This document shows positions 19,712-43,613 of a stretch of 43,613 bases of DNA, one piece after another. A program made the translations under genes and the position numbers. The stretch comes from a virus (Duplodnaviria; Heunggongvirae; Uroviricota; Caudoviricetes): positions 1 to 43,613 of the IMG/VR virus record IMGVR_UViG_2654587728_000013, one strand, 5' to 3'. Below the pieces are notes generated by a model. The model did not search any database and was not told where the DNA came from. It saw only the letters and a list, made by a program, of their open reading frames with translations. Within the stretch, counting starts at the first letter, position 1, and every line of letters starts with the position of its first letter.

Positions 19712-19733
19712 AAGGGGCTTCGGCCCCTTTATT
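19712..19733 (+). terminator. rho-independent terminator/attenuator
   Basis: AAGGGGC-TTCG-GCCCCTT followed by TATT. Confidence 0.6.
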
Positions 19734-19746
19734 GCAGGAGTCCGTT

Positions 19747-23616: not shown

Positions 23617-24158
23617 TGTGCAGCCCGGCTATCGCTCTTGCTGGCGCCAGTGTCGCTTTAAGTGGCGTTTCAGCATACAACCAGTACCAGCAAGGTAAGT
23701 ATTCATCTGCTGTTGCAGAGCAGAATGCAGAAGTGGCCACGGCACAGGCACAGGATTCTATCAACCGTGGCAACGCTCAGGCTGATGAGGTTCGTCGCCG
23801 TAATCGTCAGGCCGCTGGCACCCAGGCGGCAACCATGGGCGCTACAGGTGCAGATCTATCCACTGGTGGAGCGCTGGATATCTTCGGCGATACAGCGCAG
23901 TTTGGCGCGCTGGATGCGCTGACCACGGTCAATAACGCTCAGCGTGAAGCATATGGCTTTCAGGTTCAGGCTGAAAACTACAAAGCTCAGGCCAACTCAG
24001 CACGCAAGCAGGGGAATATGGGAGCATTTACCACACTGCTGACTGCTCCGCTTAATGCCTATGGTGCTTATAGGATTGGTGGTGGTGAATGGAACCCGTT
24101 CACACAAAGTACCCCAGCACCGATCAGCGCTGCCATCGGCACACCAACCGGTCGATAA
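23616..24158 (+). CDS. internal virion protein (putative)
   Basis: 180 aa; N-terminal hydrophobic segment, Ala/Gln/Gly-rich. Confidence 0.45.
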   Translation: MCSPAIALAGASVALSGVSAYNQYQQGKYSSAVAEQNAEVATAQAQDSINRGNAQADEVRRRNRQAAGTQAATMGATGADLSTGGALDIFGDTAQFGALDALTTVNNAQREAYGFQVQAENYKAQANSARKQGNMGAFTTLLTAPLNAYGAYRIGGGEWNPFTQSTPAPISAAIGTPTGR

Positions 24159-24170
24159 GGAGACATAGAA

Positions 24171-26792: not shown

Positions 26793-26793
26793 T

Positions 26794-28500
26794 ATGCCGA
26801 TTTATACAGATGACCCAGGGCAGGGAATAAACCAGCCGCTGTCGAATGCCCCATCAGGGCTTGGTGAATCGCTGCTTTCCTCCCTGAAAGAGGGATTCAA
26901 AGAGGGGCCTGTTGTGTCAGGTTATCGGTTTTCTCAAGCCGACCAACTGGCAAATGACCCAAATTCGACCATCGTCAGTAAATCTGACGCGGAAACACGC
27001 CTTAAAGAGTACGGCGTTAAAAGTATCAATGTGCCTGACGGCGGTGTTACACAAACATTCCTCGACCATGTGATCAGCGAGCGCAGAGAAACTCTGGCGA
27101 AGCAGCAGATCGCCATGTCTGCCCCGTCTGGATGGGTTGCCACTCCGCTTAACTTTGCCGCAAACCTTGCAGGATCAATGGCTGATCCCGGTAACGTGGC
27201 TTTGGCGCTGGTCCCGTTCGGTGGAGAAGCAAAGGCGGCAACTATGCTTGGGCGCTTCGGTGAGCGTCTTTCCACCGGTGCTCGGCTTGGCGCTGCTCAG
27301 GCCATTGCCACCGTACCTCTGACGGCACAGGCAGCAGCGGCAGAAGGAGATGACTTCACATATGGCAACGCGCTGGAGAGCACCTTCTTTAACACCATCG
27401 CTGGCGGGTTGATGCACGCTGGCGGCGGGCTGATATCGGATGTGGTACGCTCCCGCAGGGCTGGTACTGTTGAAAATCCTGCTGCCTCGCAAGACGTTCA
27501 GCCTGTCGCTGATGCGCAGCCAACACCGGTGTTTACGCCTGACAATATACCGGCAGGCGTAAATATTCCTGAGTCCGGCACCAACGCCGATCTGTCAGCG
27601 GCAATCGCGCGGGATGCGGAAGCGTATGCCTACAGCCGCGCCTATGATGATGTTGTGCCGGAATATATGGCAAGGCAGCAGGAGCTACAGACAGGGAGCA
27701 TTGACAACGTTGCGGATCTGCGAACTGAGTTGGTGACCAACAACAGGCAAAGTGAGGCACTTGACGCAACTCTGGCCCAGCGCACGACCGATTACCAGGC
27801 GCAACGCATGAAATTCAAAGCAGCACGAGCCAGGGCGCAGCGAGATATTGAGGTTGAGAAAGACGCCATCACCGCGCGTAACCAGGAAATTACGCAACAG
27901 ATTGAACGTAATGCTGCAGCAGAGCAGGCAAAAGGCAGAGAGGCGCAACTGTCCCGCAAAGAGATACCTGACGACTTGGCGCCGTTGATAGCCCAGCGTG
28001 CGCAACAGATTCGCGAAAGCATGCAGATGTCGCCTGTGGCTGGCGCAGTGCGCACTGCGTCGGCAGCGGTTCGTGAGGCTGACTGGAGCGTTAACCAGCA
28101 GGCGTATCGAGGCGCACTGGCGCACATGATGGAAGGGCGCTCGCCTGATATTGAGCCATTCTATGATCTGCACAAACCAGCTCTACGCGAGCGTGCTATC
28201 CAGCGCATACAAAATCCGGTGCGGCAGGCTGATGAAGGTTCCCGCGCCGTCAGTGAAAGTGCGGATCGTGTGTGGCAGGATACGCAGAAGGTTGACCATG
28301 AAATAACAGCGGCTACCGCTGATCTGGAAAATGAATTTAATATCAGTGATGCGCTGCTGAACGACATTGCCACTGACAATCCTGACCTGGCTGCGTCGAT
28401 GCGGGAGAATATTGCAGCGATCCGTGCAGAGGCCAGTGACGACTCTATCGGAAAAGCGTACCGCGCTTTCGCCGCCTGTCTGATTAACCGGGGGCTGTAA
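26794..28500 (+). CDS. internal virion / ejection protein (putative)
   Basis: 568 aa; in injection-protein block. Confidence 0.5.
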   Translation: MPIYTDDPGQGINQPLSNAPSGLGESLLSSLKEGFKEGPVVSGYRFSQADQLANDPNSTIVSKSDAETRLKEYGVKSINVPDGGVTQTFLDHVISERRETLAKQQIAMSAPSGWVATPLNFAANLAGSMADPGNVALALVPFGGEAKAATMLGRFGERLSTGARLGAAQAIATVPLTAQAAAAEGDDFTYGNALESTFFNTIAGGLMHAGGGLISDVVRSRRAGTVENPAASQDVQPVADAQPTPVFTPDNIPAGVNIPESGTNADLSAAIARDAEAYAYSRAYDDVVPEYMARQQELQTGSIDNVADLRTELVTNNRQSEALDATLAQRTTDYQAQRMKFKAARARAQRDIEVEKDAITARNQEITQQIERNAAAEQAKGREAQLSRKEIPDDLAPLIAQRAQQIRESMQMSPVAGAVRTASAAVREADWSVNQQAYRGALAHMMEGRSPDIEPFYDLHKPALRERAIQRIQNPVRQADEGSRAVSESADRVWQDTQKVDHEITAATADLENEFNISDALLNDIATDNPDLAASMRENIAAIRAEASDDSIGKAYRAFAACLINRGL

Positions 28501-31046
28501 TGGCTAACGAATTTCTTACGCAATGCGAAATGACCGTCAATGCAGCTGCCGGGCGCAAGCTGTCTGATGACGAAATGGAATCTTTGGTGCGTGACATGAA
28601 CGACACCACAAACCGGATACTGGCTGGTAATGAAGCACTGACGCTGGAAGAAGCAGCGATGCGCGCCGCGCAGGAGCTTGGTAATCGCGAGCAACTGGCT
28701 AAAGTCATTGAGGCACGGAATAAGGCCATTAATACCCGTATTGCAGCTCAGCGCCTTGGCGAGCTTCGCCGGACTTGGAAAGACCGTCCGGACATCGGTC
28801 TGGAGGCTATTCTTGTCGGACGTAATGACGCGCGCACTGGTTCCCGCCGCTCGGTATCCTCTGAGGTTGCCCAACTGCGCGGTAAGTATCATGCTGGTAT
28901 CAACTATGATTTCGACCAGGCAGGACTGGTTAAATTTATTGCCAGTGGCAGCAATGACCGCGAGATAGCCGACGCCATGTGGCGCATTGGCCGCGGACAG
29001 AAAACGGACGGTATGACGCCGCAATCAGTCAGTGCCGCTAAGATCATCATGAAGTGGCAGGAAACTGCGCGCGTGGATGAAAACCGTGCTGGTGCCTGGA
29101 TTGGTAAGATGCCTGGCTACATCGTCCGGCAGTCGCATGACATACTGAAAATCCGTGCCGCCGGGTATGAATCCTGGCGCAATACCATTCTGCCGCGGCT
29201 GGATGATGCCACCTTTGACGGGATCACAGACCGAGAAGGGTTCCTGCGTGGTGTCTACGACGGCCTTGCCTCCGGTGTGCACCTTACCTCTGAAAAACCA
29301 GACTGGATGAATGGCTTTAAGGGATCGGCGAATGCGGCCAAACGAGCCAGCCAGGAGCGGGTGTTGCACTTCAAAGACGGTGTTAACTGGCACGAATACA
29401 ACGAGCAATTCGGAACTGGCAGCCTGCGTGAGGCAGTATTCGGCGGACTGAACAGCGCGGCGCGCACTACGGGCATGATGCGCGTGCTTGGTACCAACCC
29501 GCAGAACATGTTCAAGTACCTGACAGACACCATCGCAAAAGACGTGAGCAAGCAGAGCAACCCTTCGGCGCTGGCTGATTTCATGACCAAGGTGCGCCGC
29601 CTGAATCGCACGGTTATGCCACAGGTTGATGGATCGCTGAATATCCCCGGCAGTGTTGGCTGGGCTAATGCCTCAGCCAACGTGCGCGGCTGGCTGCGTA
29701 TGAGTCAGCTTGGAGGAGCGGTCATTTCATCTTTTAACGACGTGCCAATCTCGGCGACAGAAATGCGGTATCAGGGCCAGAACTTCATGCAGGCGCTGAC
29801 CGGCGCGATGAAGGGGCGCTTTTCCCGCTACACCAGTGATGAGCAGAAGGAGATCCTTTCATCTATCGGCGTTTACTCCGACGCGATGACGCAGGAAATC
29901 ATCCGTCGCATGTCTGGCGACGACAGCATGAGCGGCAAGATGGGGCGTGCGCAGCAGCTATTCTTCAAATACAACCTTATGAACTTCTGGACAGAATCCG
30001 GGCGTAACAGCAACGCCATGATGATAACAAACTGGCTGGCGAAGAACGCCGATCAGCAATTTTCTGCACTGCCGGAGGACCTGCGCCGCGTTCTGGACCT
30101 GCACGGCATAGGTGACGCTGAATGGAATATCTACCGCAGCATGGACATGGCAGACAGCGAAGGCCGCAAATTCATGACGACCAGCGGAATTCGTGGCGTT
30201 CCGGATGAGGTGATAGCCTCATATGTTGAAGGAAAAGGCATGAAGGTCACCGAGCGATCTATTGCCGATGCGAGAGACACGCTGGAAAGCCAACTTCGTG
30301 GGTATATTCTTGACCGACTAAACATCGCTATGTCAGAGCCGGGAGATCGTACGCAGGCGTTTATGAAGATGGGCACTGTACCAGGAACAGTAGCTGGGGA
30401 GGCAATACGTTTCGCTGGTCAGTACAAATCGTTCACTGCGAGTTTCATGCAGAACGTGCTTGGACGTGAGGTATTCGGGCGCGGTTATACTCCCGCTGGC
30501 CTGGGTGAATCAAAAACAGGATCGCTGACGAATGCGCTGCTGCGTAACGGAAAAGGTGCATTCTTGGGGGCGGCAAACCTGTTCGTCTGGGCAACCATGT
30601 TTGGCTATATCTCTATGCAGTCGAAACTATTGCTTAAGGGGCAGACGCCGCGTCCGGCAGATGCCAAGACATTCCTCGCAGCCGCATCTCAGGGCGGCGG
30701 CCTAGGCATCTTGGGCGACTTCATGTTTGGCGAAGTCAATCGCATGGGTGCTGGTCCAGTGACATCATTGATGGGGCCAGCCGCGTCGAACGCTGATAGC
30801 ATTATCACGCTGTTCCAGCAGACAACGCGCGGCGATGCAGACCTGGGTGACTGGTATCGCACCGCGCTGGACAATACGCCTTTCCTTAACGTGTTCTGGC
30901 TGCGCACAGCAATGAATGGTTTAATATTGAACCGTATACAGGATGCTCTTGACCCTGGATCACTGGAGCGCTATCAGCGCCGTGTTGAACGGGAGCAGGG
31001 TAACGACTTTCTGATCCCACCATCGCAGTTCATGCTAGGGAAGTAA
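28500..31046 (+). CDS. large internal virion / ejection protein (putative)
   Basis: 848 aa; last large gene of the core block. Confidence 0.5.
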   Translation: MANEFLTQCEMTVNAAAGRKLSDDEMESLVRDMNDTTNRILAGNEALTLEEAAMRAAQELGNREQLAKVIEARNKAINTRIAAQRLGELRRTWKDRPDIGLEAILVGRNDARTGSRRSVSSEVAQLRGKYHAGINYDFDQAGLVKFIASGSNDREIADAMWRIGRGQKTDGMTPQSVSAAKIIMKWQETARVDENRAGAWIGKMPGYIVRQSHDILKIRAAGYESWRNTILPRLDDATFDGITDREGFLRGVYDGLASGVHLTSEKPDWMNGFKGSANAAKRASQERVLHFKDGVNWHEYNEQFGTGSLREAVFGGLNSAARTTGMMRVLGTNPQNMFKYLTDTIAKDVSKQSNPSALADFMTKVRRLNRTVMPQVDGSLNIPGSVGWANASANVRGWLRMSQLGGAVISSFNDVPISATEMRYQGQNFMQALTGAMKGRFSRYTSDEQKEILSSIGVYSDAMTQEIIRRMSGDDSMSGKMGRAQQLFFKYNLMNFWTESGRNSNAMMITNWLAKNADQQFSALPEDLRRVLDLHGIGDAEWNIYRSMDMADSEGRKFMTTSGIRGVPDEVIASYVEGKGMKVTERSIADARDTLESQLRGYILDRLNIAMSEPGDRTQAFMKMGTVPGTVAGEAIRFAGQYKSFTASFMQNVLGREVFGRGYTPAGLGESKTGSLTNALLRNGKGAFLGAANLFVWATMFGYISMQSKLLLKGQTPRPADAKTFLAAASQGGGLGILGDFMFGEVNRMGAGPVTSLMGPAASNADSIITLFQQTTRGDADLGDWYRTALDNTPFLNVFWLRTAMNGLILNRIQDALDPGSLERYQRRVEREQGNDFLIPPSQFMLGK

Positions 31047-31047
31047 T

Positions 31048-31419
31048 ATGAACAGAATTATATTAATGACTCTTCTTATTTTTTTTGTTGGAAAAGCTTC
31101 TGCTGATACTACATCACCTTTAATGATTCAGCCTAAAAATGGAGAAACATTGGAGGATTCTAAAAAGCATACAATGGAATACTTTGGATGCATAAAAGGG
31201 CAGGCTGTAAAGTATGCCAAGACAGGAGAAAGTGTTGATTCCATATCAAAAGCTTCGGTTGTGTCATGCGAGTCATATATACCAATGATCGCCGAGTCGA
31301 ATATATATTATTTAAACTCTTCGCAAGATGGTAAGCGGCAATTTACAGAAAGGCTAAAATCTGATGGTGAGAGATTAGCCACAAAATTTGCCATGGATGA
31401 GAAGATTAAAAATAAATAG
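31048..31419 (+). CDS. small secreted protein (AT-rich moron)
   Basis: 123 aa; signal peptide MNRIILMTLLIFFVGKASA; visibly low GC (estimated ~35%, not computed). Confidence 0.55.
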   Translation: MNRIILMTLLIFFVGKASADTTSPLMIQPKNGETLEDSKKHTMEYFGCIKGQAVKYAKTGESVDSISKASVVSCESYIPMIAESNIYYLNSSQDGKRQFTERLKSDGERLATKFAMDEKIKNK

Positions 31420-31427
31420 GTGACCAC

Positions 31428-31724
31428 ATGCAAGCTATTGGTTTCATTGTTTACATAGTTGTTGGTCTTTTTCAGTTGGCTGCGATCATGGCTGGTCTTG
31501 AATCGTGGTGGGGACTGCACTGGATAGTGGCTGCACCCATTGCTTTCATCGTTAGTTATATCCCGTTGGTCGGTTCCATTGTTGGAATGGTTGGCGCTGT
31601 CGACGTATGGCGTTGGGAATGGTGGCAGGCAGGGCTTCTTTTCTTTGGCGGCCTGGTTTTTGCTATTGCGTGCGGGGGGATGTCTTCGTTCTTCGAATGG
31701 CTATCCTTCAGGAAAAGAGCGTGA
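31428..31724 (+). CDS. small three-TM membrane protein
   Basis: 98 aa; three hydrophobic helices; RBS AGGTGA; stop overlaps GTGACATGTCAC palindrome. Confidence 0.55.
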   Translation: MQAIGFIVYIVVGLFQLAAIMAGLESWWGLHWIVAAPIAFIVSYIPLVGSIVGMVGAVDVWRWEWWQAGLLFFGGLVFAIACGGMSSFFEWLSFRKRA

Positions 31725-31732
31725 CATGTCAC
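31721..31732. repeat. 12-bp palindrome GTGACATGTCAC (copy 3 of 3)
   Basis: Exact copy overlapping stop of 31428..31724; GC hairpin 25 bp downstream. Confidence 0.6.
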
Positions 31733-31748
31733 AAAGGCCACTGCACCC

Positions 31749-31771
31749 ACAAAAAAGCCCGCGTCGCGGGC
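31749..31771 (-). terminator. rho-independent terminator (minus strand; possibly bidirectional)
   Basis: GCCCGCG-T-CGCGGGC hairpin with A-run on plus / T-run on minus, directly after stop of 31772..32236. Confidence 0.55.
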
Positions 31772-32236
31772 TTACTCTTCTTCATCGCTACCAAAGAGCG
31801 GGTTATCGTTGTAGTCAGAGAGAAGAAACGGTATGTGCTCCCTCGAATACCCAACCACAACTATTTCATCTCCGTCTTTCGCATAGTGAATGCATTCATT
31901 TGAATGCTTCCCACCAGGGTTGAATTTTAAGTCAACAGTATGATTTCTGAAGGTGTTAGGATACCACGTGGGACCACAATGATAGTGCCAGTAATTTTCC
32001 TGCTCATAATTGTCTGAACCGGGAATTTTATCATAGTTGTCGTCAACCCAAGATGGCTTGTTTTTACCTACAAGCGTTCTGCCATTGGCAACATCTTCCA
32101 TAAAATTTTGGATGGTTTCCAACTCCAGGTCCGTGAGATGTGGTCCATCTACTGCGAAAGGTTCGTTACTGGCACCGGTTATAAAGCCAAATGCAACCCT
32201 AGGCTTAAACTTCAAGTTACACCCCTGACAGGTCAA
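31772..32236 (-). CDS. hypothetical protein with acidic C-terminal tail
   Basis: 154 aa; only start-like codon at 5' end is TTG immediately after in-frame TAA of upstream small ORF; start uncertain. Confidence 0.4.
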   Translation of the reverse strand: MTCQGCNLKFKPRVAFGFITGASNEPFAVDGPHLTDLELETIQNFMEDVANGRTLVGKNKPSWVDDNYDKIPGSDNYEQENYWHYHCGPTWYPNTFRNHTVDLKFNPGGKHSNECIHYAKDGDEIVVVGYSREHIPFLLSDYNDNPLFGSDEEE

Positions 32237-32404
32237 TTATTTTGCGCGAAATGCCGCCTTGAAGTCGTTGAAAGAAGTCCCTGACTGATAAGTCATGTCC
32301 TGGTCGCGATCTTTGTTAGCGCGACCAAGCATTACTTTACCAATGGCATCCCAGCATTGCTTGGCTTGCTCATTTTGTTGAGTCCGATTTTTCAACGCTG
32401 TCAT
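32237..32404 (-). CDS. small ORF (55 aa) in same frame as downstream 154-aa ORF
   Basis: Found by manual translation (below ORF-track size cut-off); strong RBS AGGAGA; ends at TAA followed in frame by TTG of next ORF. Confidence 0.35.
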   Translation of the reverse strand: MTALKNRTQQNEQAKQCWDAIGKVMLGRANKDRDQDMTYQSGTSFNDFKAAFRAK

Positions 32405-32418
32405 AGTGCGTCTCCTTC

Positions 32419-32435
32419 TTTACCTTTGAGGTAAT
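32419..32435. promoter_or_regulatory. operator copy TTTACC-TTTGA-GGTAAT over RBS of small ORF
   Basis: Perfect TTACC-N5-GGTAA. Confidence 0.5.
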
Positions 32436-32499
32436 ATTACGCGAATCTACGTCACACCGCCAATGATTATTTTATAGGCGCATCCCTGCGCCATCGTCA

Positions 32500-33198
32500 T
32501 CAGAACTTACCAGTCATGCTGTTGATGTACTGCGCATGAGTCTGGATATCGCGCAGGCATTTACTGGCGCCGACAATGTAGCTCATCATGGCCGCGAACT
32601 CTGCTACAGCACCTTCAACATCATGCCCGTCTGCGTCCAGTTGGCGTAGCAGGCTCATCATCAAAGAGTGCTCTGTCAGACCAAGAACACCTTCAGGTGA
32701 ATGGATGTGTTCACGGTAGTTTGGCTTGAGTGGGGCGCTGTATTCCTGTTTCTCTTCCGTCTTCATCGCTTCCAGAATGGCGGGCATGAAGCTGGCTACA
32801 ACCTTTTGCGCTTTGTCTGCCGGTGATAATTCTTCACGAACGTATCGACCAGTGCGGCGGATTTGCGGAAGAACGTCGCCAGTTACCCATTTGCGGAAAC
32901 GATAGGGGATAGTACCAGGAGTTACCGCATCGCGGCAGCGCAGGATCAGAGTGTAGAGGCCGGATTCAGAGATGATGAGGGTATTAGGGTTCCCTCGTTT
33001 TCCGTCGGTTAAAGCGACGGTATTCTTTTCGTCGTCATCCAATTTAAGCAGAGCATCACGGTTGTTTGATATACCAAGAGCATTACATACATCTAACGCA
33101 ATAAACCATGGCTCGCCGTCGATGATGATTGCACGAATATCGGCTTGCGATTCGAAAGAAAAAACTGAAGTATTTTTTTGAGTTGTCATAGTGATCAC
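32500..33198 (-). CDS. Bro-N domain antirepressor
   Basis: 232 aa; N-terminal FSFESQADIRAIIIDGEPWFIALDVCNALGI matches Bro-N; distinct C-terminal domain. Confidence 0.7.
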   Translation of the reverse strand: MITMTTQKNTSVFSFESQADIRAIIIDGEPWFIALDVCNALGISNNRDALLKLDDDEKNTVALTDGKRGNPNTLIISESGLYTLILRCRDAVTPGTIPYRFRKWVTGDVLPQIRRTGRYVREELSPADKAQKVVASFMPAILEAMKTEEKQEYSAPLKPNYREHIHSPEGVLGLTEHSLMMSLLRQLDADGHDVEGAVAEFAAMMSYIVGASKCLRDIQTHAQYINSMTGKF

Positions 33199-33457
33199 CT
33201 TTTAGTCTGGTTAATCACCACCGGAGGTTCCAATCTCGGAGGTGGTGAACTGTGCAGGGTTGGAACTACCGGCTAAAAGGACCCGGCGCACCTTTCGGTG
33301 CCCCCACACAGCCCACCATAATGCGAATGTGGCCGTGCTTAACGCATAAAAAAACCGCTTGCGCGGTGAATGCGCCTTTTAGTATCCGGGGTTCCAATCC
33401 CGGCACTGGATTTTGCCAGTGCCTGATCACTATGGCACAAGTATTTTGCGTTGTAAA

Positions 33458-33474
33458 TTTACCGTAAAGGTAAT
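33458..33474. promoter_or_regulatory. operator copy TTTACC-GTAAA-GGTAAT in antirepressor promoter region
   Basis: Perfect TTACC-N5-GGTAA. Confidence 0.5.
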
Positions 33475-33504
33475 AATAAACGCATTATGTAGGTTATTTC
33501 AACC

Positions 33505-33765
33505 TTATGTGGTTTGCTTGCGTAACTGTTCCGCACAGTAATCGAGATGCGTTTGCAGATCCTGCATGGTCATTTGAGAGCTTGTTACGTAATTCACAAG
33601 GGCAACCAATTCAGCCAGCGGCCCGTCAACGTTGAAGCCGTCTTTATCGAGTTCCCGCAGCAACTTCATCAGATGCGAGTCCTCCACCAGGGATCTAACG
33701 CCTACCGGCGTGTGTATTCTTTCCTCAAATCCTTCTTCCAGCGGATGGTGATACTGCCGTTGCAT
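33505..33765 (-). CDS. stand-alone paralog of the antirepressor C-terminal domain
   Basis: Aligns by eye to C-terminus of 32500..33198 (HLMKLLRELDKDGFNVDGPLAEL vs SLMMSLLRQLDADGHDVEGAVAEF); start at MQRQYHH with GGAG RBS. Confidence 0.5.
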   Translation of the reverse strand: MQRQYHHPLEEGFEERIHTPVGVRSLVEDSHLMKLLRELDKDGFNVDGPLAELVALVNYVTSSQMTMQDLQTHLDYCAEQLRKQTT

Positions 33766-33840
33766 CTCTTCTTCTCCATGCAATCACTGTATAAACATAC
33801 AGTAGCAGAAGATTTACTGACTATCCAGCACGAAATGTAA

Positions 33841-33857
33841 ATTACCTGTAAGGTAAT
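33841..33857. promoter_or_regulatory. operator copy ATTACC-TGTAA-GGTAAT between antirepressor paralog and tailspike
   Basis: Perfect TTACC-N5-GGTAA in divergent intergenic region. Confidence 0.5.
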
Positions 33858-33962
33858 AAAGTATGTGTTCATTCCTCATTAGGTTCATATAAGGTTTTTA
33901 TGGTAATACAATGATTCAGAGTGCATGCGCGCCGGGCGCAAAAGCAATCTGGAGAAAATGAC

Positions 33963-36650
33963 ATGACGGTTTCAACCGAAGTTGACCACAATGACTACAC
34001 AGGTAACGGGGTCACGACATCATTCCCATATACCTTCCGAATTTTTCATAAGTCTGATCTGGTGGTGCGGGTTGTTGACCTGAGCGAAAACATCACTGAA
34101 TTAACACTGGACACTGACTACACGGTGACAGGTGCTGGCGGATATACTGGCGGGAATGTTGTTTTATCGTCGCCTCTTGCCAATGGTTATCAGATTTCGA
34201 TATCCAGAGAGTTACCGGTTACCCAGGAGACTGATCTCAGAAATCAGGGTAAGTTTTTCGCAGAAGTGCATGAGGATGCTTTTGATAAGTTGACCATGCT
34301 GATACAGCAGGCAATTAGTTGGCTGCGCCTTTCTTTACGTAAGCCGTCTTTTATTGCAAATTATTATGATGCCCTGGGTAACTACATACGAAATCTTCGT
34401 GACCCGTCACGACCACAGGATGCAGCTACAAAAAATTACGTTGACGGAGTTGCTGAAGGTAACACTTCTTATGCAGATTCTCTATTTAAAAGAACCTTAA
34501 GAGTTCCTGAGGATTATGTTGACCAGATACCATCAAATGCTGATAGATCAAATAAAATACTTGCTTTTGATTCTGGCGGTAAACCTATTGCTGTTTTACC
34601 TGAATCTGGTTCTGCTTCAGATGTTTTAATTGAGCTGGCAAATAACGGTGATAAAAAAATTGGTAGCTCATATGGAGGCACAGTTTATAGCGACTACCAA
34701 CGATCAATTTTTGTCAAAAAGGCAGAATTTTCTTCAGGTTTAACCATTTCATCAAAGAATGATGCTTGTCTTTATGCTGATGGGCTATGGTACGTATGGA
34801 CTGGAGCATTACCTCACACCATCTCGTCTGGTGAATTTCCGGATGTCGAAACAACTAAATGGGCATGCGTTGGACTTCTGAATGGTTACCGAATCAATGA
34901 AGTAAAAAATTTCATTGAGAAACCCGGCATCACAAATGATTCACCAGCAATTAAACTTGCTATTTACTCGTTAGTGCGTCTTGGCTACGGAGAGTTGATT
35001 GTTACAGCTAACTCAAAAGTAAACATAATCACAGAGGTTGCAATACCATTTGCCATTGATGGAATCCCTGTATCCATAGGAATAAGAGGTGAAGGTGTAA
35101 TAAACTCTCTGGGGAATGTCCCAGAGATAAGGTTTGGACTTAACTCAAGGGGGATTGTGTTTGGTAATGTTTGCTATTCATTAGACCGCCTGGTGTTATC
35201 ACAATATGTAGGATCAGAAAATACAGATGTGATAAGCAAAACATCCAACACCATTACTCTGGTATCAAATCCATTTCAGGCTAATGGTGGAAATATAATT
35301 ACATGGCCTTTGACTGACAACAACACCGCAGGTGTTCCAGTAAGTAACTTCTGTCAATTCAGCACTAACTCTGGGGCTTTCTTTGCTACAGGACTTGTTA
35401 ATAACTCTGATGGGAGTTGTACATTAACCGGAGTTACTGGGTGCAATGGAACCCCTTCGTCAGAGATATCGAACGTCACAAAAGTTGTCAGATTTACATC
35501 AAGAGCGCATCAGTTACCAGATGACACCTATCCGCGCACAGCAGCATGCATCAGTTTAGATGTCATAGAGAACCCTACTATAAGCAACTTATGGGTTCTG
35601 CAAACATATCGAACTTTCTCATTCAAAGATGGAAATGGAGGCGGAGAAGGTTCAGGTCTGGGTCATTACGGATTGTGGAATGACATCATAGTCGATGGGA
35701 CCAAAGAATTTGTAGGCGGTACAGATTTGAGTGGCGGCAGCATTCAAGGAATTGAAGGCGGACAGTTTGTTAATATCCATCTGTTTGGTACTAAGTATGG
35801 TTTTCGTGGCCGAAGAATGAAGTCATGTATGTTCTCAAACTGCACACACTATGCTTTTACAGGCGGTAAAATATTTGACATTCTGGAGTTTGATGGTTTT
35901 TCATGGGGAGGCGGTTCTATTGGTTGGAACTCAGGTTCTGGGTACATCAGCAATGTTATGGATTGTGTAAATGGTGATAACATTACATTCACCGGTGTTA
36001 AGTTTGGTAGGCACCACACTACAGAATCAGGACCGGCTTTTAAATGCTCATCTCGTTTTACTAATTTTTCATTTACCGGAAACAGCCATGAATCAGTGAG
36101 CGAAGGTGGATTCACTGATATTGGTTTCTTTGATGTAAATGAATTTTCTAGATCAAGTATTGGCGAAAACGCAATTGGGTTTAATGGTAATGGGCAACCA
36201 ACACTAACGATGTCTACTTCTGCACCTGATATTGCAAGATTCGCAGGTACTAGATTTAATCAGCCTGTTCTCACAAATGCCCCTGCTGGCATTTATGATA
36301 ACGAACATACTTCAGGTAAAGGAACATTCTATTCTACATCAGACTATCGTGACTCAGGTAAGATTTTAATAATACCTGATATTAACTCGGCCTCACCATG
36401 GCCTGATGATTCTAGAAATATAATAAAATTTGGCGGTACTTTATCTCCTGGTAAAACTCTAATGCTTCCAGAGCTAACTATATTGAATGGGACGCTTCTT
36501 AGGAGCATGGTTTTACTAGATCTTTCATCAGTAAATTTCAATGGTCAGACTATCGGTATTTATAATGGACCTACACTTATAACTACATTGTCATCACAAG
36601 GAATATATGAGTTTCTTAGTGTAGGATCTACTTATTACAGGATAAAATAA
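33963..36650 (+). CDS. tailspike / receptor-binding protein (mosaic)
   Basis: 895 aa from ATG with GGAGAAAA RBS (ORF track start 33921); N-terminal region of normal GC, C-terminal ~2.2 kb AT-rich and Gly/Asn/Ser/Thr-rich. Confidence 0.7.
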   Translation: MTVSTEVDHNDYTGNGVTTSFPYTFRIFHKSDLVVRVVDLSENITELTLDTDYTVTGAGGYTGGNVVLSSPLANGYQISISRELPVTQETDLRNQGKFFAEVHEDAFDKLTMLIQQAISWLRLSLRKPSFIANYYDALGNYIRNLRDPSRPQDAATKNYVDGVAEGNTSYADSLFKRTLRVPEDYVDQIPSNADRSNKILAFDSGGKPIAVLPESGSASDVLIELANNGDKKIGSSYGGTVYSDYQRSIFVKKAEFSSGLTISSKNDACLYADGLWYVWTGALPHTISSGEFPDVETTKWACVGLLNGYRINEVKNFIEKPGITNDSPAIKLAIYSLVRLGYGELIVTANSKVNIITEVAIPFAIDGIPVSIGIRGEGVINSLGNVPEIRFGLNSRGIVFGNVCYSLDRLVLSQYVGSENTDVISKTSNTITLVSNPFQANGGNIITWPLTDNNTAGVPVSNFCQFSTNSGAFFATGLVNNSDGSCTLTGVTGCNGTPSSEISNVTKVVRFTSRAHQLPDDTYPRTAACISLDVIENPTISNLWVLQTYRTFSFKDGNGGGEGSGLGHYGLWNDIIVDGTKEFVGGTDLSGGSIQGIEGGQFVNIHLFGTKYGFRGRRMKSCMFSNCTHYAFTGGKIFDILEFDGFSWGGGSIGWNSGSGYISNVMDCVNGDNITFTGVKFGRHHTTESGPAFKCSSRFTNFSFTGNSHESVSEGGFTDIGFFDVNEFSRSSIGENAIGFNGNGQPTLTMSTSAPDIARFAGTRFNQPVLTNAPAGIYDNEHTSGKGTFYSTSDYRDSGKILIIPDINSASPWPDDSRNIIKFGGTLSPGKTLMLPELTILNGTLLRSMVLLDLSSVNFNGQTIGIYNGPTLITTLSSQGIYEFLSVGSTYYRIK

Positions 36651-36672
36651 AAAAGCGGGGCATTGACCCCGC
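36642..36672 (-). terminator. rho-independent terminator (minus strand)
   Basis: GCGGGG-CATTGA-CCCCGC hairpin preceded on plus strand by A-run (T-run on minus). Confidence 0.55.
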
Positions 36673-36732
36673 AGCTAAACTATCTTCGAATCTTATTAAT
36701 TATCTTTCTTCCTAGATTAACAAAAGGCTTTT

Positions 36733-37698
36733 CTACTGTCCTGTAGAAATAATTAAAGGAATACCATTTATTAAATTGAAGTAACTTTTATATCCAACAA
36801 AGAAAGCAGAAGGATACTTATCACTCACATTTAATCTTTTCCCTAATCCGTATTTAGTGTCTAACCATACCACAACTTCATCATTATGTTTGTTCTTTGC
36901 AGTCATGCGGTAAACATTTGGATATTTACCCTTAGGGCCACTATCATTTGGTCCGCTGGAGGTGTCTTTCCATTCTTGAGAGTCACCTGATTCATAACAA
37001 ATTGAACTGTTAGCATACAGTTGGGAAAGTGCAGTTTGTAGTCCGTAGTAAGTGTGTATCCTCACCTTTTCAAGGGGAACCATTTTGATATGCACATCTG
37101 CACGTCCTTCATTAAATTTCATTTTTACTTTCTGTTGAATAATCTCTCTACCAGAACCATCTTTCTTTTTGGTGTTAAAGCCCTGTATGTTAGACGTAGT
37201 TTCTATCACTAAATCATTTGTATACCCCTTAAATGTATCATTGACCATCTTCCCATCTACCCATACCTGAAGAGAAACATGCCTGGCTGTAGGAGAGCCA
37301 CTCTGGTTCCCATTAAACCCATGCCAGCCACCTGTGAACTCAGCTATTGGGTCATCACCATCTTCATTACTTTCTGCGCTGACCATAATTGGTCCAATGA
37401 TGTCCGTGTCGAATGTTTGAACTGTCGTTAACCCATCCAGTCTGCCACTGGGAAAATCTGTATACTTCCAAGAAAAATTTTTGTAAATCCTTGAAAATGA
37501 AAATATTTTGTTAAGACCAGTTCTATTAAGCTCAATTACCCGGTCTTCAAGTAGTGAATATTTGTACTGAATTTTTATGTCTGCGTTCGGAACATCAACA
37601 CTAACGTACTGTTTTTCTTTTGCAACATCCTCAGACGCTGTTCCTGCTAACGTGCAAGCTATGATGATAAACAAAGAAATTGATATCGTTTTTTTCAT
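36733..37698 (-). CDS. predicted lipoprotein, function unknown (AT-rich moron)
   Basis: 321 aa; signal peptide with lipobox-like IIAC; low GC; convergent with tailspike. Confidence 0.55.
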   Translation of the reverse strand: MKKTISISLFIIIACTLAGTASEDVAKEKQYVSVDVPNADIKIQYKYSLLEDRVIELNRTGLNKIFSFSRIYKNFSWKYTDFPSGRLDGLTTVQTFDTDIIGPIMVSAESNEDGDDPIAEFTGGWHGFNGNQSGSPTARHVSLQVWVDGKMVNDTFKGYTNDLVIETTSNIQGFNTKKKDGSGREIIQQKVKMKFNEGRADVHIKMVPLEKVRIHTYYGLQTALSQLYANSSICYESGDSQEWKDTSSGPNDSGPKGKYPNVYRMTAKNKHNDEVVVWLDTKYGLGKRLNVSDKYPSAFFVGYKSYFNLINGIPLIISTGQ

Positions 37699-37816
37699 GC
37701 CAATTTACCCGAAAACAATCTTGTAGTAATCATAACTTTTCTGTGCATTTTTTTCATTTTGTTAGATTTATCCACAAATAATGTGTAGAAACTCGCCAAG
37801 AGTGTCATAGTTTATT

Positions 37817-37834
37817 TAAACCATATATGGTTTA
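37817..37834. promoter_or_regulatory. 18-bp perfect palindrome TAAACCATATATGGTTTA
   Basis: In divergent promoter region between lipoprotein gene and lysis cassette. Confidence 0.4.
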
Positions 37835-37894
37835 TTGTGTATGATGTGATCACCAACTAATGGGGGTCTTTATGCACAGTAAACGGTGGTCACC

Positions 37895-38299
37895 ATGTCA
37901 GCCCAGCTAACCAGTGAGTCTTTAAATCAGTGGCTTAGTATGGGTTCTCTGGCTGCAGTGATCGCAGGAGTTCCACCCGAAGTGGCGCTTGGTGCTTTAT
38001 CAGGTGCGGTAATATTTATTACCTCAGCCGTTGAGTATCCAATACGCCGCCGGGTTCTCCTGTCGATGCTCAGCTTCCTCTGCGGGCTTCTATTCTACAA
38101 ACCAACTGCATCAATCCTTATCGGCGTAGCCAGCCTGATCCCAACTATCACACAGGATTCATTCGAGAAAGGGATCGTCTTCTCTGCTGGCGCGTTCGTG
38201 TCGGCAATCGTCGCAGTACGTATTGGTATCTGGCTCTATCACCGTTCCGACAATCCACGCGATTTAATCCCGGGGAGAAAAGACGATGACAACTCATGA
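37895..38299 (+). CDS. holin-like membrane protein (about 4 TM)
   Basis: First gene of lysis cassette; multiple hydrophobic helices; ORF track start is GTG at 37886. Confidence 0.45.
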   Translation: MSAQLTSESLNQWLSMGSLAAVIAGVPPEVALGALSGAVIFITSAVEYPIRRRVLLSMLSFLCGLLFYKPTASILIGVASLIPTITQDSFEKGIVFSAGAFVSAIVAVRIGIWLYHRSDNPRDLIPGRKDDDNS

Positions 38300-38594
38300 G
38301 CTGCTTTTACTGATTGCCAATGCGGTTATCTGTTCTGCGATAGCAATCCGCGTCGGAACCTTCCGGCGTAATGGATCGCAACACCGCCGGTGGGGTGGGT
38401 GGATAGCCTACTTCCTTATCGTGGCATCAGCCAGCATCCCCGTCCGCGCCGCATATGCAATCTGGTATCACACACCAATGGCCGCTGATTTATCAGAGGT
38501 CATCATCAATGCTGTCATGCTTGCCGCTGTTCTGAAGACGCGCGGCAATGTCGTGCAGATATTCAAAATATCGAGGTCTCAACATGGACATTAA
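38286..38594 (+). CDS. holin/antiholin-like membrane protein (3 TM)
   Basis: 102 aa; three TM helices, basic C-terminus; overlaps neighbours. Confidence 0.45.
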
Positions 38595-39210
38595 CCAGTT
38601 CCGGCTAGCAGCCGGTATTACTGAACAACTGGCCACGCGCTGGTACCCACACATCACCGCAGCCATGAATGAGTTTGGCATTATTAAACCTGATGACCAG
38701 GCGATGTTTATTGCGCAGGTCGGGCATGAGTCCGAAGGGTTTACCCGGTTACAGGAAAACTTCAACTACAGCGTTAACGGTCTGTCCGGGTTTATCCGTG
38801 CCGGGCGTATCACTCCAGACCAGGCCAACGCACTCGGCAGGAAAACATATGAGAAGTCTCTTCCTCTGGAGCGCCAGCGCGCGATCGCCAATCTGGTGTA
38901 CAGCAAGCGCATGGGTAACAACGGCCCAGGTGATGGATGGAATTATCGCGGTCGTGGACTTATCCAGATCACTGGTCTGAACAACTACCGGGATTGCGGT
39001 AATGGTCTGAAGGTTGATCTGGTCGCTCATCCTGAACTGCTGGCGCAGGATGAATACGCGGCCCGCAGCGCGGCGTGGTTCTTCGCCAGCAAAGGTTGCA
39101 TGAAGTACACGGGAGACCTAGTGCGCGTCACGCAGATTATCAACGGTGGCCAGAACGGTATCGACGACCGGCGAGCACGTTACGCCGCTGCTCGTAAGGC
39201 ACTGTTATGA
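38584..39210 (+). CDS. endolysin, glycoside hydrolase family 19 (chitinase-like)
   Basis: [17 protein letters not shown] and QVGHESEGF motifs; start MDINQF (ORF track 38548). Confidence 0.8.
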
Positions 39211-39689
39211 TCTGGGCATTCATCAAAGCGTACTGGAAACAGTTGCTTATCGTAGTGATGCTTGCGGCGCTGGTTATCGGTGGAGTGGTTGCGTGGAAGG
39301 ATAACGGCGACCGGAAGTATGCCGCCGGGTATGCTCAGGCGCAGGCAGACCAGAAACAGGCTGATGATAAAGCCCGTAAACACGACGAACAGGAGAAAGT
39401 GATCAATGAACGTGAAGCGCAGCAGAGGATCGACCAGGCGCGTAATGATGCTCTTGATGCTTCCGCTCGCGCTGGCCGGTTGCAGCAACAGCTCGTTGCC
39501 ATCCGTGAGCAGCTCAGGCAGTATAACTCCACTGTCGGCGCTGGGACGTCAGCCGCAGATACCGGCGTTTTGCTTACCGACGTGCTCAGCAAATCTCTCG
39601 AGCGAAACCGACAACTGGCAGAGTACGCTGACCGGGCCGCCGAAGCCGGAAGAGTCTGTGAAAAGCAGTACGATTCGCTGACTAGGTGA
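39207..39689 (+). CDS. i-spanin (Rz-like)
   Basis: 160 aa; N-terminal TM helix then Gln/Ala/Arg-rich coiled coil; follows endolysin. Confidence 0.7.
39406..39681 (+). CDS. o-spanin (Rz1-like lipoprotein) embedded in +1 frame
   Basis: 91 aa; RBS AGGAGA; signal peptide with lipobox LALAGC; Pro/Ser-rich; fully nested in i-spanin gene. Confidence 0.6.
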   Translation: MNVKRSRGSTRRVMMLLMLPLALAGCSNSSLPSVSSSGSITPLSALGRQPQIPAFCLPTCSANLSSETDNWQSTLTGPPKPEESVKSSTIR

Positions 39690-40120
39690 CATGGCATTTT
39701 TCATGGTACTGATTTCCGGTGACGGTATATAAAACGGTACGGTAAAAATCGGTTTCAGGAAAATTGTTGTCAGTCAATTAGTTATGCTTACCGTAAATAA
39801 TTGAGTGGGAATGATTTAACGTCTGGCAACAGCCTGCACGTAAAAGCAGTAAAGTACCTCTAAGCCCGCGTAACTGCGGGCTTTTTTGTTTTTGTATCTG
39901 GCACTTTCTGGCAGCTGTTAGCAACGGGAAGCACGGTTTTTTCAATGGAATTTTTGATGGTACTCTCTGGTTTCGAATTCAGGTTTGAAAAAGTACCATG
40001 TGATAAATTTCGGTTGAGTTATGGTATTTATTTTTTATAACTCAATTAAAAACAGAGAGTTAAACAAGTTTTCTGAATTTTTTACAACATGGTATTTTTG
40101 ATAAAGGAAAACAATAAAAC
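39690..40120. other. candidate attP / integrase arm-site region
   Basis: Non-coding 430 bp upstream of int with repeated ATGGTA(C/T)T elements at 39702, 39955, 40019, 40088 and inverted copy AGTACCATG at 39992. Confidence 0.4.
39862..39893 (+). terminator. rho-independent terminator after lysis cassette
   Basis: AAGCCCGCG-TAACT-GCGGGCTT followed by TTTTTGTTTTT. Confidence 0.7.
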
Positions 40121-41311
40121 ATGTTGACTGACACCAGGCTGCGTCACCTTAAGCCGAAGGAGAAACTCTATAAAGTTAATGACCGTGATGGTCTGTATGT
40201 TGCGGTCACTCCGGCTGGAACTATTTCATTTCGTTATAACTATTCAATAAACGGAAGACAGGAGACCGTTACTTTTGGCCGCTATGGTGTTGGAGGGATC
40301 ACGCTTGCAGAAGCGCGTGAACGGCTCAATGAAGCTAAAAAAATGGTTGCCAGTGGAAGATCGCCAGCGAGGGAAAAAGCTAGAGATAAAGCTCGTATCA
40401 AAGATGCGGAGACTTTTGGTGCATGGGCTGAGAAATGGTTACGCGGTTATCAAATGGCTGAATCGACGCGTGATATGCGGCGTTCGGTATATCAAAGGGA
40501 GTTGAAGTCAAAATTTGCGCAGCAGAAATTGACCGAGATTACACATGAAGACTTACGCGCATTAACCGATAACATTGTCGAGAGAGGGGCACCGGCGACA
40601 GCTGTGCACGCCAGAGAGATTGTATTGCAAGTCTATCGCTGGGCTATTGAGCGCGGTCAGAAGGTTGAGAATCCCGCTGATCTGGTACGGCCTGCAAGCA
40701 TAGCGAAATTTGAGCCTCGTGACAGGGCATTGACGCCAGTTGAAATTGGTCTGATGTATCGGTACATGGAACGGGTAGGAACGACGCCATCAATCAGAGC
40801 AGCGGTTAAACTTTTGCTGTTAACGATGGTACGTAAAAGTGAGCTTACTAACGCAACCTGGAACGAGATCAATTTTAGTGAGGCATTATGGACGATACCA
40901 AAGGAGAGGATGAAACGACGTAATCCACATTTGGTTTTTCTTTCCAGACAGGCAATGGATATTATGATTGCTCTCAAAACCTTTGCCGGTAGCTCTGATT
41001 TTATCCTTCCTTCGCGGTACGATTCCGATGCGCCAATGAGTAGCGCTACTTTAAACCGGGTTTTGACACTGACGTATCGTCTGGCTCAGAAAGAAGGGGA
41101 CTTGTTACCTAAGTTTGGTCCCCATGACTTACGGCGTACTGCCAGCACCTTGCTACATGAGGCCGGGTACAATACTGACTGGATTGAGAAGTGCCTTGCC
41201 CATGAACAAAAGGGGGTACGAGCTGTTTATAACAAGGCTGAATATCGTGAGCAGAGGGCCGAGATGCTACAAGATTGGGCGAATATGATTGATGAATGGA
41301 CTAGTAAGTAG
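40121..41311 (+). CDS. int: site-specific tyrosine integrase
   Basis: 396 aa; N-terminal arm-binding-like domain (LTDTRLRHLKPKEKLYKV), C-terminal catalytic region with HDLRRT and conserved Tyr context. Confidence 0.9.
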   Translation: MLTDTRLRHLKPKEKLYKVNDRDGLYVAVTPAGTISFRYNYSINGRQETVTFGRYGVGGITLAEARERLNEAKKMVASGRSPAREKARDKARIKDAETFGAWAEKWLRGYQMAESTRDMRRSVYQRELKSKFAQQKLTEITHEDLRALTDNIVERGAPATAVHAREIVLQVYRWAIERGQKVENPADLVRPASIAKFEPRDRALTPVEIGLMYRYMERVGTTPSIRAAVKLLLLTMVRKSELTNATWNEINFSEALWTIPKERMKRRNPHLVFLSRQAMDIMIALKTFAGSSDFILPSRYDSDAPMSSATLNRVLTLTYRLAQKEGDLLPKFGPHDLRRTASTLLHEAGYNTDWIEKCLAHEQKGVRAVYNKAEYREQRAEMLQDWANMIDEWTSK

Positions 41312-41434
41312 TTAATAATCAGTGATTTAAGTGGATATACTTCTTTTATCTACGCCAGGAGAGCAATTTTAGCCGCTAAAATTTACTGAATCTTTACTGG
41401 TTTTATCTGGATTGCATAAAAAGGAAAAATAAAA

Positions 41435-42064
41435 GTGCCTGAGTTGTCTGTAATTATACAATGGATGAATCAATACCCTAAGACCGGCTGGCTATTGCTG
41501 TGTATCTATATTGCACTCGGTGTAGTTCGTCACAGAGTAATTAATGCTGAATCTGGAAGTGTATTTCGTGGACTACTCAATCTTAGGAAGCGCCGGCTAG
41601 AGCAAATGCTGACACAGCCATATTTGAATAAAAATGCGGTCCGTCTGGCAAAGCGTGAGCTTCGTCAGCGCAGCCTTTATCGGCTCACAGGCTTGTATAA
41701 TTATCGGCTGCAGGATTTGGCTGTAATAATGTGTGATCGTTATGGGTTGCGGGCTGGTTATCTCAAGCCGTGGCGTAACTGGCTCGAAGAACGGGATGGA
41801 CGGATTGTGTTCAACAGGAAATGGCATTGTTTTCGCTGGCGTCTTTTTCTGGTAGGTCAGATTGTAAACACAGTTCTACTAATCTTATTCATTATGTATA
41901 TAGTTTCTCATTCTTCGGCCGAAATGATCGCACCGCTTATGTTACTCTTCATGCTTGTATGGTGGTTTCCTTGGCTAATGATCACCTCGGTACCTACCCC
42001 TAGGTGGACTCGCGAAATGGAAGTCTATCTTGAGAAATTTAACGCTGAACAGACCATGGTTTAA
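41435..42064 (+). CDS. membrane protein, function unknown (AT-rich, integrase-adjacent)
   Basis: 209 aa; one N-terminal and two C-terminal TM helices around a basic cytoplasmic region; GTG start (ATG alternative at 41465). Confidence 0.45.
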   Translation: MPELSVIIQWMNQYPKTGWLLLCIYIALGVVRHRVINAESGSVFRGLLNLRKRRLEQMLTQPYLNKNAVRLAKRELRQRSLYRLTGLYNYRLQDLAVIMCDRYGLRAGYLKPWRNWLEERDGRIVFNRKWHCFRWRLFLVGQIVNTVLLILFIMYIVSHSSAEMIAPLMLLFMLVWWFPWLMITSVPTPRWTREMEVYLEKFNAEQTMV

Positions 42065-42641
42065 ACTGTTCTTTGTTACCATGCATTCAGAGTGAATTGT
42101 CAGAGTTTTGGAAGATTCCATCCTACGAGTAATACTCACAAGGTAATTCACATAATCAATAGGTTAAGTCATAAGCTTCTTGACCCTACATGAGAAGACG
42201 AATTTTAGCTGCTAAAAGTTTGGGCATATTTGGACTTAAATGCCACCGACATGATTCTAATAATTAAGCCAGTACCTAATGAGCCAAGAGAAGACAACTG
42301 TAAACGCCCCTTGGCTTAGACTTGCTTTCAGGAAAGCGAATGCTTTTTATGGTCAGGGACAAGTAAGGGGATGAGCCATTGCATAACCATAAAACCAATT
42401 CGTTCTATGTCATTACAGATCGGCTTCAGTGATTTACTGGTGAGGTAGTATCACTGTGATCCGTTTTGCATAACGCTTACAGCTGCGCTACAAACAATAA
42501 ACTATAATACTGTATTTTCAAAATCATCAATTTGAAGCAGGGTAATCGCGAAAAACCCTCGTAAGTGGCTGGTTATAATTCAATAAAGTGGATGATATTA
42601 AGACTTAAACTGCCACCATAATAGCTCGTGGATATACTATT

Positions 42642-43613
42642 TTAAATATTAAATTCTTTCCTCACAGACGCTAAGGCCTTGGACACAGCCTGCTTTGTCA
42701 TAGTTGTGTAGTGATTTTTTTCTAAAACCTGTGCGGTTTCAAACTGGTTAAAACCTTGGTGTTTTAATATGATTATTTTTTTCTTAGTATCAGTGAATTT
42801 GGAGTCAACCATTCGTCTGGCAATATTCCTAAGTTTATCTAGATCTGCTGGGGTTAAAGTTTGACCCTGCATCCACTCATGAAAATAGGTATCAATCAAT
42901 ATATCCCCTGTGTTTGCGTTAGCTTTATGCGGTTTAGCGCATTGCCGTCTAAGCCTTATTAATTCTTTATTGAACTGTTCGAGAGACCGCTTTCCTTGTC
43001 TGTATTTGGGATTCCATAGACCATTGGTGAGTTTGGGCCTATGGTCAGAACAATATCGATGACTAAGGACCTGTTTTTCATGAACGGGGAACTCATTATC
43101 GTTAGCAACAAATTCTGATATCTCACTGATCAACTTGGAAAATTCGGTTAGATTACCGCAGAACTCGCAATAACCGAGCTTACGCTGTGAATTTATAGTT
43201 ACTCCTTTTGCAGGAGAGGATTTCTTCGGCCGCTTGGATGCGCACTCACTGACTAATTCAATAAGAGACTCAATCGTAGCGGTAAAGCATTTATCAAGAG
43301 AAGTTTGTTGATCTAAAGTCAGAACGAAATTACGCAAAAGAAGTCTTTGTGCCTGTACTACGACGTTTAAGCCCACTTTTTTAAGTACATCACTAAATCC
43401 TAGATTTACTCCAGAAATGTAGTCTTTATGACTTGGTGGCAGGGAATTTACATAAGCAGCTACTGCTGGATCAATAACTTCCTGTATGAGACGCAGTATT
43501 GGATACCTCCGTGAAAATATGGAGTACGGATAACTACGCTCTACAAATAATTTAATTGCAGCTGCAACTGTGAGGTCACAGCCTTCCCAGATAGTAATTT
43601 TCATGTCAACCAT
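42642..43613 (-). CDS. hypothetical protein with C-terminal HTH (LuxR/sigma-70 region-4-like), possibly truncated at window edge
   Basis: 323 aa; AT-rich; C-terminus IIILKHQGFNQFETAQVLEKNHYTTMTKQAVSKAL; first ATG is the last 3 nt of the window. Confidence 0.45.
   Translation of the reverse strand: MVDMKITIWEGCDLTVAAAIKLFVERSYPYSIFSRRYPILRLIQEVIDPAVAAYVNSLPPSHKDYISGVNLGFSDVLKKVGLNVVVQAQRLLLRNFVLTLDQQTSLDKCFTATIESLIELVSECASKRPKKSSPAKGVTINSQRKLGYCEFCGNLTEFSKLISEISEFVANDNEFPVHEKQVLSHRYCSDHRPKLTNGLWNPKYRQGKRSLEQFNKELIRLRRQCAKPHKANANTGDILIDTYFHEWMQGQTLTPADLDKLRNIARRMVDSKFTDTKKKIIILKHQGFNQFETAQVLEKNHYTTMTKQAVSKALASVRKEFNI

Follow-up and report, generated by a model that had tools for sequence, protein, structure and literature searches.

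The stretch of DNA analysed here (the window) is 43,613 nt long. Towards its right end, an Rz-like spanin gene and a tyrosine integrase gene flank a region (39690-40120) that is non-coding, as the original prediction stated: no ORF longer than 55 aa is found between the stop codon of the spanin gene (39689) and the ATG of the integrase gene (40121). At least four direct ATGGTA(C/T)T elements and one inverted copy had also been described in this region and are indeed present, four on the plus strand (39703-39710, 39957-39964, 40021-40028 and 40089-40096) and one on the minus strand (39992-39999). The genes and sites considered below are as follows, with the evidence for each in brackets.

1-255, minus strand: 84-aa phage gene whose stop codon is at window base 1 (phrog_21496 match)
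1581-1829, minus strand: AlpA-family phage protein (Pfam Phage_AlpA, 25.6 bits against a cut-off of 21)
39207-39689, plus strand: Rz-like spanin (DUF2514), the last prophage gene on this side (~91% identity to the epsilon15 lysis cassette; Pfam DUF2514 on the identical gene of JHRJ01000003.1)
39690-39799, plus strand: lysis-side arm (P arm) of an epsilon15-type attP, now read as the phage arm of the prophage attR (phage homology)
39800-39817, plus strand: common att core ATTGAGTGGGAATGATTT, in which the final four codons of guaA and its stop codon (39800-39814) are followed by TTT
39818-40120, plus strand: int-proximal arm (P' arm) of an island, now read as the island arm of its attL (99.8% identity to E. 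coli M8 just downstream of guaA)
39862-39883 with a T-run (to 39887), plus strand: terminator-like hairpin (conserved across 81 loci, mean 0.86)
40121-41311, plus strand: tyrosine integrase of 396 aa, the island's and not the phage's (Pfam domains; M8 identity)
41435-42064, plus strand: 209-aa hypothetical protein, island cargo or regulatory (in the M8-identical segment)
42642-43613, minus strand: 323-aa protein with the RefSeq name LuxR-family regulator (the window ends on its ATG)

Homology across the att core

The region contains a homology breakpoint. The genomes of epsilon15, phiV10, SPN1S and other Uetakevirus members match the lysis genes up to about 39818-39820 and then stop, with 90.8% identity between epsilon15 and window positions 37821-39818, and hundreds of E. 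coli chromosomes match the window from 39800 onward. E. coli M8, for example, is 99.8% (99.79%) identical over 39800-43613; its match begins inside guaA, and no phage is present. In a three-way comparison, the phage and island homologies overlap in the 18-mer ATTGAGTGGGAATGATTT (39800-39817). This sequence occurs once in the window and is identical in the empty site of K-12, in epsilon15 attP (2801-2818 of the epsilon15 segment analysed), at both ends of the M8 island and in the attL of the E. coli contig JHRJ01000003.1 (see below). Within it, GAGTGGGA (39803-39810) is 99.5% conserved across 81 loci. The attP core of Uetakevirus has been placed at the 3' end of guaA as attgagtgggaatgatt (PMC9782041), and the GIsul2 Int was found experimentally to recombine 19-bp att sites sharing GAGTGGGA at guaA (PMC9376610). 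The K-12-type flank carries GACCCTGCAC. We infer that the overlap lies at GAGTGGG in the core, and that a 9-bp inverted repeat around it (TAAATAATT / AATGATTTA), read by eye, may represent the core-type sites.

The two arms differ in content as well as in origin. The P arm carries the doublet ATGGCATTTTTCATGGTACT (39691-39710), GTGACGGTAT (39719-39728) and AACGGTAC (39733-39740); the epsilon15 record labels the 10-mer GTGACGGTAT an integrase site. Alignment with the left arm of epsilon15 attP shows hardly any change in the first ~55 nt of the P arm, followed by ~45 nt of diverged sequence. The P' arm holds the terminator (39862-39887) and repeats at 39945-39964 (a doublet), 39992-39999 (minus strand), 40021-40028 and 40089-40096. 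If the P arm and core of the window are joined instead to the attL arm of JHRJ01000003.1, the rebuilt 317-nt site aligns end to end with epsilon15 attP. The region had been put forward as a candidate attP. It does contain an att core of 18 bp (39800-39817), but it is not an attP, since its arms come from two different elements, the right one being island DNA. Furthermore, the epsilon15-type integrase that should adjoin such a site is absent from the window and is found at the other end of the prophage, outside it.

The hairpin past the core had been taken for a lysis terminator. However, it belongs to the island, as it is conserved across the 81 loci, including islands without a neighbouring phage. 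The terminator in the int-side arm of the phage, AACCCTCTGTTTTCACAGGGGGTTTTT, closely resembles the native K-12 guaA terminator AACCCTCTGTTACTACAGAGGGTTTTTT, both in the JHRJ01000003.1 arm and in epsilon15 (2819-3007 of the segment analysed); the island terminator is unrelated. The int-side arm of the phage may include captured host sequence.

Chromosomal context of the window

JHRJ01000003.1 (E. coli, 160,487 nt, assembly GCA_001267345.1) is 100.000% identical to the window over positions 1-17414 and 29207-43613; this comparison covered 31.8 kb, including both ends, and left out 17415-29206. JHRF01000333.1 is only 99.5% identical to the window. Directly to the left of window base 1, JHRJ01000003.1 carries the phage integrase of 417 aa, a 192-nt attL with the core, guaA (99.9% identical to guaA of E. 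coli E2348/69) and guaB. Directly to the right of the last window base lie alpA, repA, a NikA/TraJ-like gene, trbJ and trbL, and these island genes past the window end are 99.1% identical to E. coli M8. In this contig, guaA and the island are therefore separated by the prophage. In a near-identity search with window positions 1-2500, the first ~360 nt had no match in phage records or complete E. coli genomes.

Both edges of the window are gene boundaries, base 1 being the stop codon of a minus-strand gene and base 43613 the ATG of another, so that the window looks like a cut-out provirus call. The cut left out the 417-aa integrase of the prophage (start 3 nt left of base 1) and its attL, and took in 3.8 kb of the adjoining island. 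IMGVR_UViG_2645727810_000025, one of four further IMG/VR proviruses with the junction (see below), terminates at precisely the base that ends the window. Such misplaced provirus boundaries at tandem arrays look systematic. Seen through such a provirus call, the genome resembles a free phage with the order lysis, attP, int, and its host range and life cycle are easily annotated wrongly. The main value of the present analysis is a correction: the call lost the phage's own integrase and gained 3.8 kb of island.

These comparisons make us highly confident that the region is the seam between an integrated epsilon15-like prophage and a guaA island, that is, a chimeric site made up of the prophage attR and the island attL. 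Two other readings have to be set against it. If the window were a circular, non-integrated phage, the region would be its intact attP and the adjoining int its own integrase. Free epsilon15-like phages also show the order lysis, attP, int, with ~320 nt from Rz to int, a layout that the window copies, and the window contains no obvious host gene and, in a tRNA scan for an att target, no tRNA. However, in JHRJ01000003.1, guaA, an attL and a separate phage Int of 417 aa precede the window and island genes follow it, and the right arm and int of the window are 99.8% identical to the phage-free M8 island. In addition, the window ends on gene boundaries, and its start is not a continuation of the M8 sequence past the window end. 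A permuted circle was rejected when this closure test failed, because the island homology reaches the last window base and the M8 continuation is absent at the window start. The reading as an intact attP is almost certainly wrong, and the original prediction that the genome is in the non-integrated permutation does not hold, the window being, over the 31.8 kb compared, part of a 160-kb E. coli contig with guaA and attL to its left and island genes to its right. The accompanying statement that no host genes flank the window is contradicted by the same contig, where guaB and guaA are found.

The other reading is a recombinant phage that has captured the int, hypothetical and luxR genes of an island as a module, the region then being a functional hybrid attP. 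Exchange of att-site modules is common among temperate phages, the two integrases share the core and are 53% identical, and the window, at 43.6 kb, exceeds epsilon15 by ~4 kb. On the other hand, the prophage retains its own intact Int and attL on the guaA side, and the island homology does not end with luxR but runs through alpA, repA, traJ, trbJ and trbL on the same contig. The extra 3.8 kb is exactly the part of the island that lies inside the cut. We consider a captured module very unlikely.

The identity of the island can be read from M8, where it spans 25.2 kb, is non-phage and has the core as a direct repeat at both ends. The order of genes is guaA, int (396 aa), hypothetical, LuxR-family regulator, HTH/AlpA, RepA helicase, traJ, trbJ, trbL and HigA, followed by an ABC-three-component defence system, Fic/DOC, IS elements, the second core copy and yfgI. 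In JHRJ01000003.1, the island genes, all on the plus strand, encode AlpA (PF05930), an AAA_25 RepA, a NikA-like TraJ, a 264-aa protein at the TrbJ position and TrbL (PF04610). PIME1 is a subfamily of guaA-targeting integrative mobilizable elements related to GIsul2, and its members (int, luxR, alpA, repA, traJ, trbJ, trbL) sit at guaA (bioRxiv 10.64898/2026.01.12.698999). By sequence, the present island matches the PIME1/GIsul2 kind: its Int lies at the 3' end of guaA with the GAGTGGGA core, and alpA, repA, trbJ and trbL share the orientation of int. A LuxR-family regulator in the regulatory region is what marks PIME1, and the candidate for it here is the 323-aa protein, which is a LuxR-family regulator by its RefSeq name in M8; neither it nor the 209-aa island protein has a PHROG, Pfam or NCBIfam match. 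In the M8 copy of the island, at 33939-38125 of the M8 segment analysed, lie the genes for the ABC-three-component system, an AAA ATPase, Fic/DOC and HigA; this copy is riddled with IS911 and ISEc38. The presence of these defence genes is consistent with the reported role of PIMEs as reservoirs of defence systems (bioRxiv 10.64898/2026.01.12.698999).

Elsewhere in the window, a perfect 24-nt tandem repeat, with 4.5 copies of CCCAAAAACGGGAAGTTGAATGAT at 6893-7001 (also 6854-6906), lies inside a 272-aa HTH_36/DnaT-like replication gene (6596-7414). By analogy with lambdoid phages, these copies are probably origin iterons within an O-like initiator gene. A 321-aa ORF without a Pfam, NCBIfam or PHROG match (36733-37698, minus strand) is located between the tailspike and holin genes on the opposite strand, and may be a moron because it occupies the position of the O-antigen serotype-conversion genes of epsilon15.

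Integrases and the ATGGTAYT repeats

The integrase directly downstream of the region is 99.8% identical to the int beside guaA in the M8 island. It matches the Pfam domains Arm-DNA-bind_3 (69.7 bits), Phage_int_M (45.4 bits) and Phage_integrase (83.5 bits), the cut-offs being 27, 27 and 27.1, respectively. On the phage side, the AlpA-family protein encoded at 1581-1829 has a homologue that the SPN1S record names ‘excisionase and transcriptional regulator’. It is therefore a probable excisionase (recombination directionality factor), which would assist the phage Int at attL and at the chimeric site.

ATGGTAYT occurs nine times in the whole window, where shuffling predicts 2.08; a count of nine was not reached in any of 100 shuffled sequences. 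Five of the nine lie inside 394 bp; with the rest of the window as background, only 0.04 would be expected in 431 bp (Poisson P(≥5) ~8e-10). In addition, the degenerate copies ATGGCATT (39691) and ATGGAATT (39945) are each located 12 bp upstream of a perfect copy, and the two resulting 20-nt doublets (39691-39710 and 39945-39964) are 90% identical to each other. Four of the five perfect copies and one degenerate copy are found in the int-proximal arm of the island, while the fifth (39703) and its partner are in the phage arm.

We surveyed the same int-upstream arm in alpha-, beta- and gamma-proteobacteria, taking it from 80 species in which the integrase is 87-100% identical to that of the island. 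Nearly all of the 80 loci have copies of the motif at -31, -100 and -129 relative to the start of int. In 78 of them, the core precedes int by 316-326 nt, mostly 316-320. A conservation footprint was then obtained from an alignment of 81 distinct sequences, with a median identity to the window of 56%. Only four runs of at least 7 nt are conserved at 90% or more, namely: GAGTGGGA, TACCATG (39994-40000), ATGGTAT (40021-40027) and CATGGTAT (40088-40095). Three repeat copies are thus the best-conserved blocks of the island proximal arm across 81 divergent homologues; the doublet copies at 39945 and 39957 show only moderate conservation, ranking 46 and 79 among 296 8-nt windows. In E. coli R18, the copy at 40021 reads ATGGTGTT. 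The distal arm of the M8 island also holds a doublet, ATGGTATTTTTAATGGTATT, ~60-77 bp from the distal core, and the two island arms account for 6 of the 10 ATGGTAYT copies in 49.9 kb of M8. At -148, where TCGAATTCAGG stands in the window, most loci from outside the enterobacteria show an additional inverted copy, ATGGCAT. The 80 species that carry the integrase include members of Vibrio, Yersinia, Dickeya, Bordetella, Cupriavidus, Xanthomonas, Mesorhizobium and Brucella, and one carrier is a MAG labelled Bacteroidota.

Because the motif is distinct from the core, occurs in both arms and in both orientations, and is conserved among homologous elements beside an Int with an arm-binding domain, the repeats of the island arm are very probably arm-type sites of the int directly downstream. 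The earlier assignment of the repeats to integrase arm sites is retained in this form, but the integrase in question is that of the island and not that of the phage. It is also conceivable that the CATGGTAT repeats are operators for another protein, for example a directionality factor of the AlpA type or a protein that regulates the int promoter, which would be compatible with a tandem array. The copy at 40088-40095 is only ~25-33 nt upstream of the int ATG, a position suited to a promoter or operator. Directionality factors, such as lambda Xis, often bind tandem direct repeats, which the doublets with their 12-bp spacing resemble. Yet the copies extend over more than 150 bp, occur in either orientation and in each of the island arms, and adjoin an Int with Arm-DNA-bind_3, as is classic for arm sites; a search of 39500-40300 found no sigma-70-like promoter for int. 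We judge the operator reading to be unlikely.

The doublet of the phage arm (39691-39710) is conserved in free epsilon15, although the epsilon15 record gives GTGACGGTAT, and not ATGGTAYT, as the site of the phage Int. The copy at 39703 and its degenerate partner may serve the phage Int as a related arm-type site, or else be a trait retained from common ancestry. The island Int and the 417-aa phage Int are 53% identical overall and ~67% identical over their first 60 residues (counted from the alignment), which makes related A(T/C)GGTAY motifs plausible. CATGGTAT is a candidate consensus for the arm sites of the island integrase, by which sul2 and defence cargo are moved, and the layout of these sites is conserved. 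The word ‘arm’ has no occurrence in either PMC9376610 or bioRxiv 10.64898/2026.01.12.698999, and the CATGGTAT repeats were not found in either.

The tandem array at guaA and known systems

The same layout is found in the complete genome of E. coli R18, which has guaB, guaA, int, phage, lysis genes, the junction, a second int and an element with RepA and traJ/trbJ/trbL. The junction layout also occurs in four IMG/VR proviruses, one of which is 100% identical to window positions 36522-43341 and one of which continues into the island. A 201-nt junction probe was at least 80% covered in 6 of 5,426 complete E. coli genomes. In IMGVR_UViG_2908567220_000006 (7740-12302), the element after the junction consists of int and the 209-aa gene only, with the host gene yfgH directly after it; what is left of this decayed island still supplies the chimeric att. 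The same guaA core is competed for by Uetakevirus prophages and PIME/GIsul2-type islands, which stack there.

The array has the order guaA, attL, phage int (417 aa) through lysis genes, chimeric att, island int (396 aa), hyp, luxR, alpA, repA, traJ, trbJ, trbL and further island genes, with the chimeric att doubling as the prophage's attR and the island's attL. Since both elements have P4-like Ints with an N-terminal arm-binding domain that are related and use the same core, the array presumably arose when one of them, whichever came second, entered the core copy kept by the other. Following established tyrosine-integrase biology, the phage Int and its AlpA-type excisionase would recombine attL with the chimeric site, yielding a circle with a normal epsilon15-type attP and leaving guaA, the core and the island arm as the ordinary attL of the island. 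Conversely, the island Int would recombine the chimeric site with the distal attR of the island, so that the island is released and an ordinary prophage attR remains. In this scheme, the N-terminal domain of the island Int would bind the (C)ATGGTAY repeats, namely the four perfect copies and one degenerate copy of the proximal arm and the doublet of the distal arm. Recombination between the outermost sites would excise the whole composite. Finally, each element would bring its own terminator just past the core, restoring both the guaA stop codon and termination after integration.

It is unlikely, though worth stating, that the recombination modules of phage and island cross-talk, with the Int or directionality factor of one acting on the sites of the other. 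The idea comes from the ATGGCATTTTTCATGGTACT doublet, which is of the same type as the CATGGTAT sites, and from the Int N-termini (~67% identical). If true, cross-talk would couple island excision to prophage induction or permit excision of a composite of ~65 kb.

The left half of the region corresponds closely to the att sites of Uetakevirus (epsilon15, phiV10 and vB_EcoP_ZX5), which have the same core, a homologous lysis-side arm and the order holin, endolysin, Rz, att; the same 417-aa type of Int lies beside guaA in JHRJ01000003.1. Compared with the Uetakevirus attP, however, the window has only the lysis-side arm and core from the phage, the int-side arm being at attL outside the window, and compared with the attR, the bacterial side is here replaced by another mobile element. 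The right half shares with PIME1/GIsul2 the position of int downstream of guaA, the GAGTGGGA core and the gene set, with a candidate luxR as the one gene not in the orientation of int, but here the island attL is flanked by a 40-kb prophage rather than by guaA itself.

In lambda attP, arm-type sites are bound by the N-terminal domain of Int, and core-type sites lie around a 7-bp overlap. The present system resembles it in having repeats that are distinct from the core and present in both arms and orientations, and in the separate arm-binding domain of Int; in addition, IHF sites are part of the epsilon15 annotation, located between its arm sites and core. It differs from lambda in that the integrases are P4-like and not lambda-like, the arm motif is different, and the arm-type sites and the overlap are predicted ones.

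Tandem accretion with chimeric internal att sites (‘attI’) has been reviewed (PMC5704250). Such arrays likewise consist of a head-to-tail pair of elements with related but distinct tyrosine integrases and a hybrid att usable by each for excision; the reviewed cases are mostly ICEs, IMEs and CIMEs of Firmicutes, whereas here a podovirus prophage is paired with a proteobacterial IME. Both element families, the shared core, the guaA target and tandem accretion with a chimeric att are already known, and to that extent the finding is an ordinary one. What appears to be new is the particular prophage-IME pair, together with a candidate consensus, conserved among loci, for the arm sites of the island integrase.
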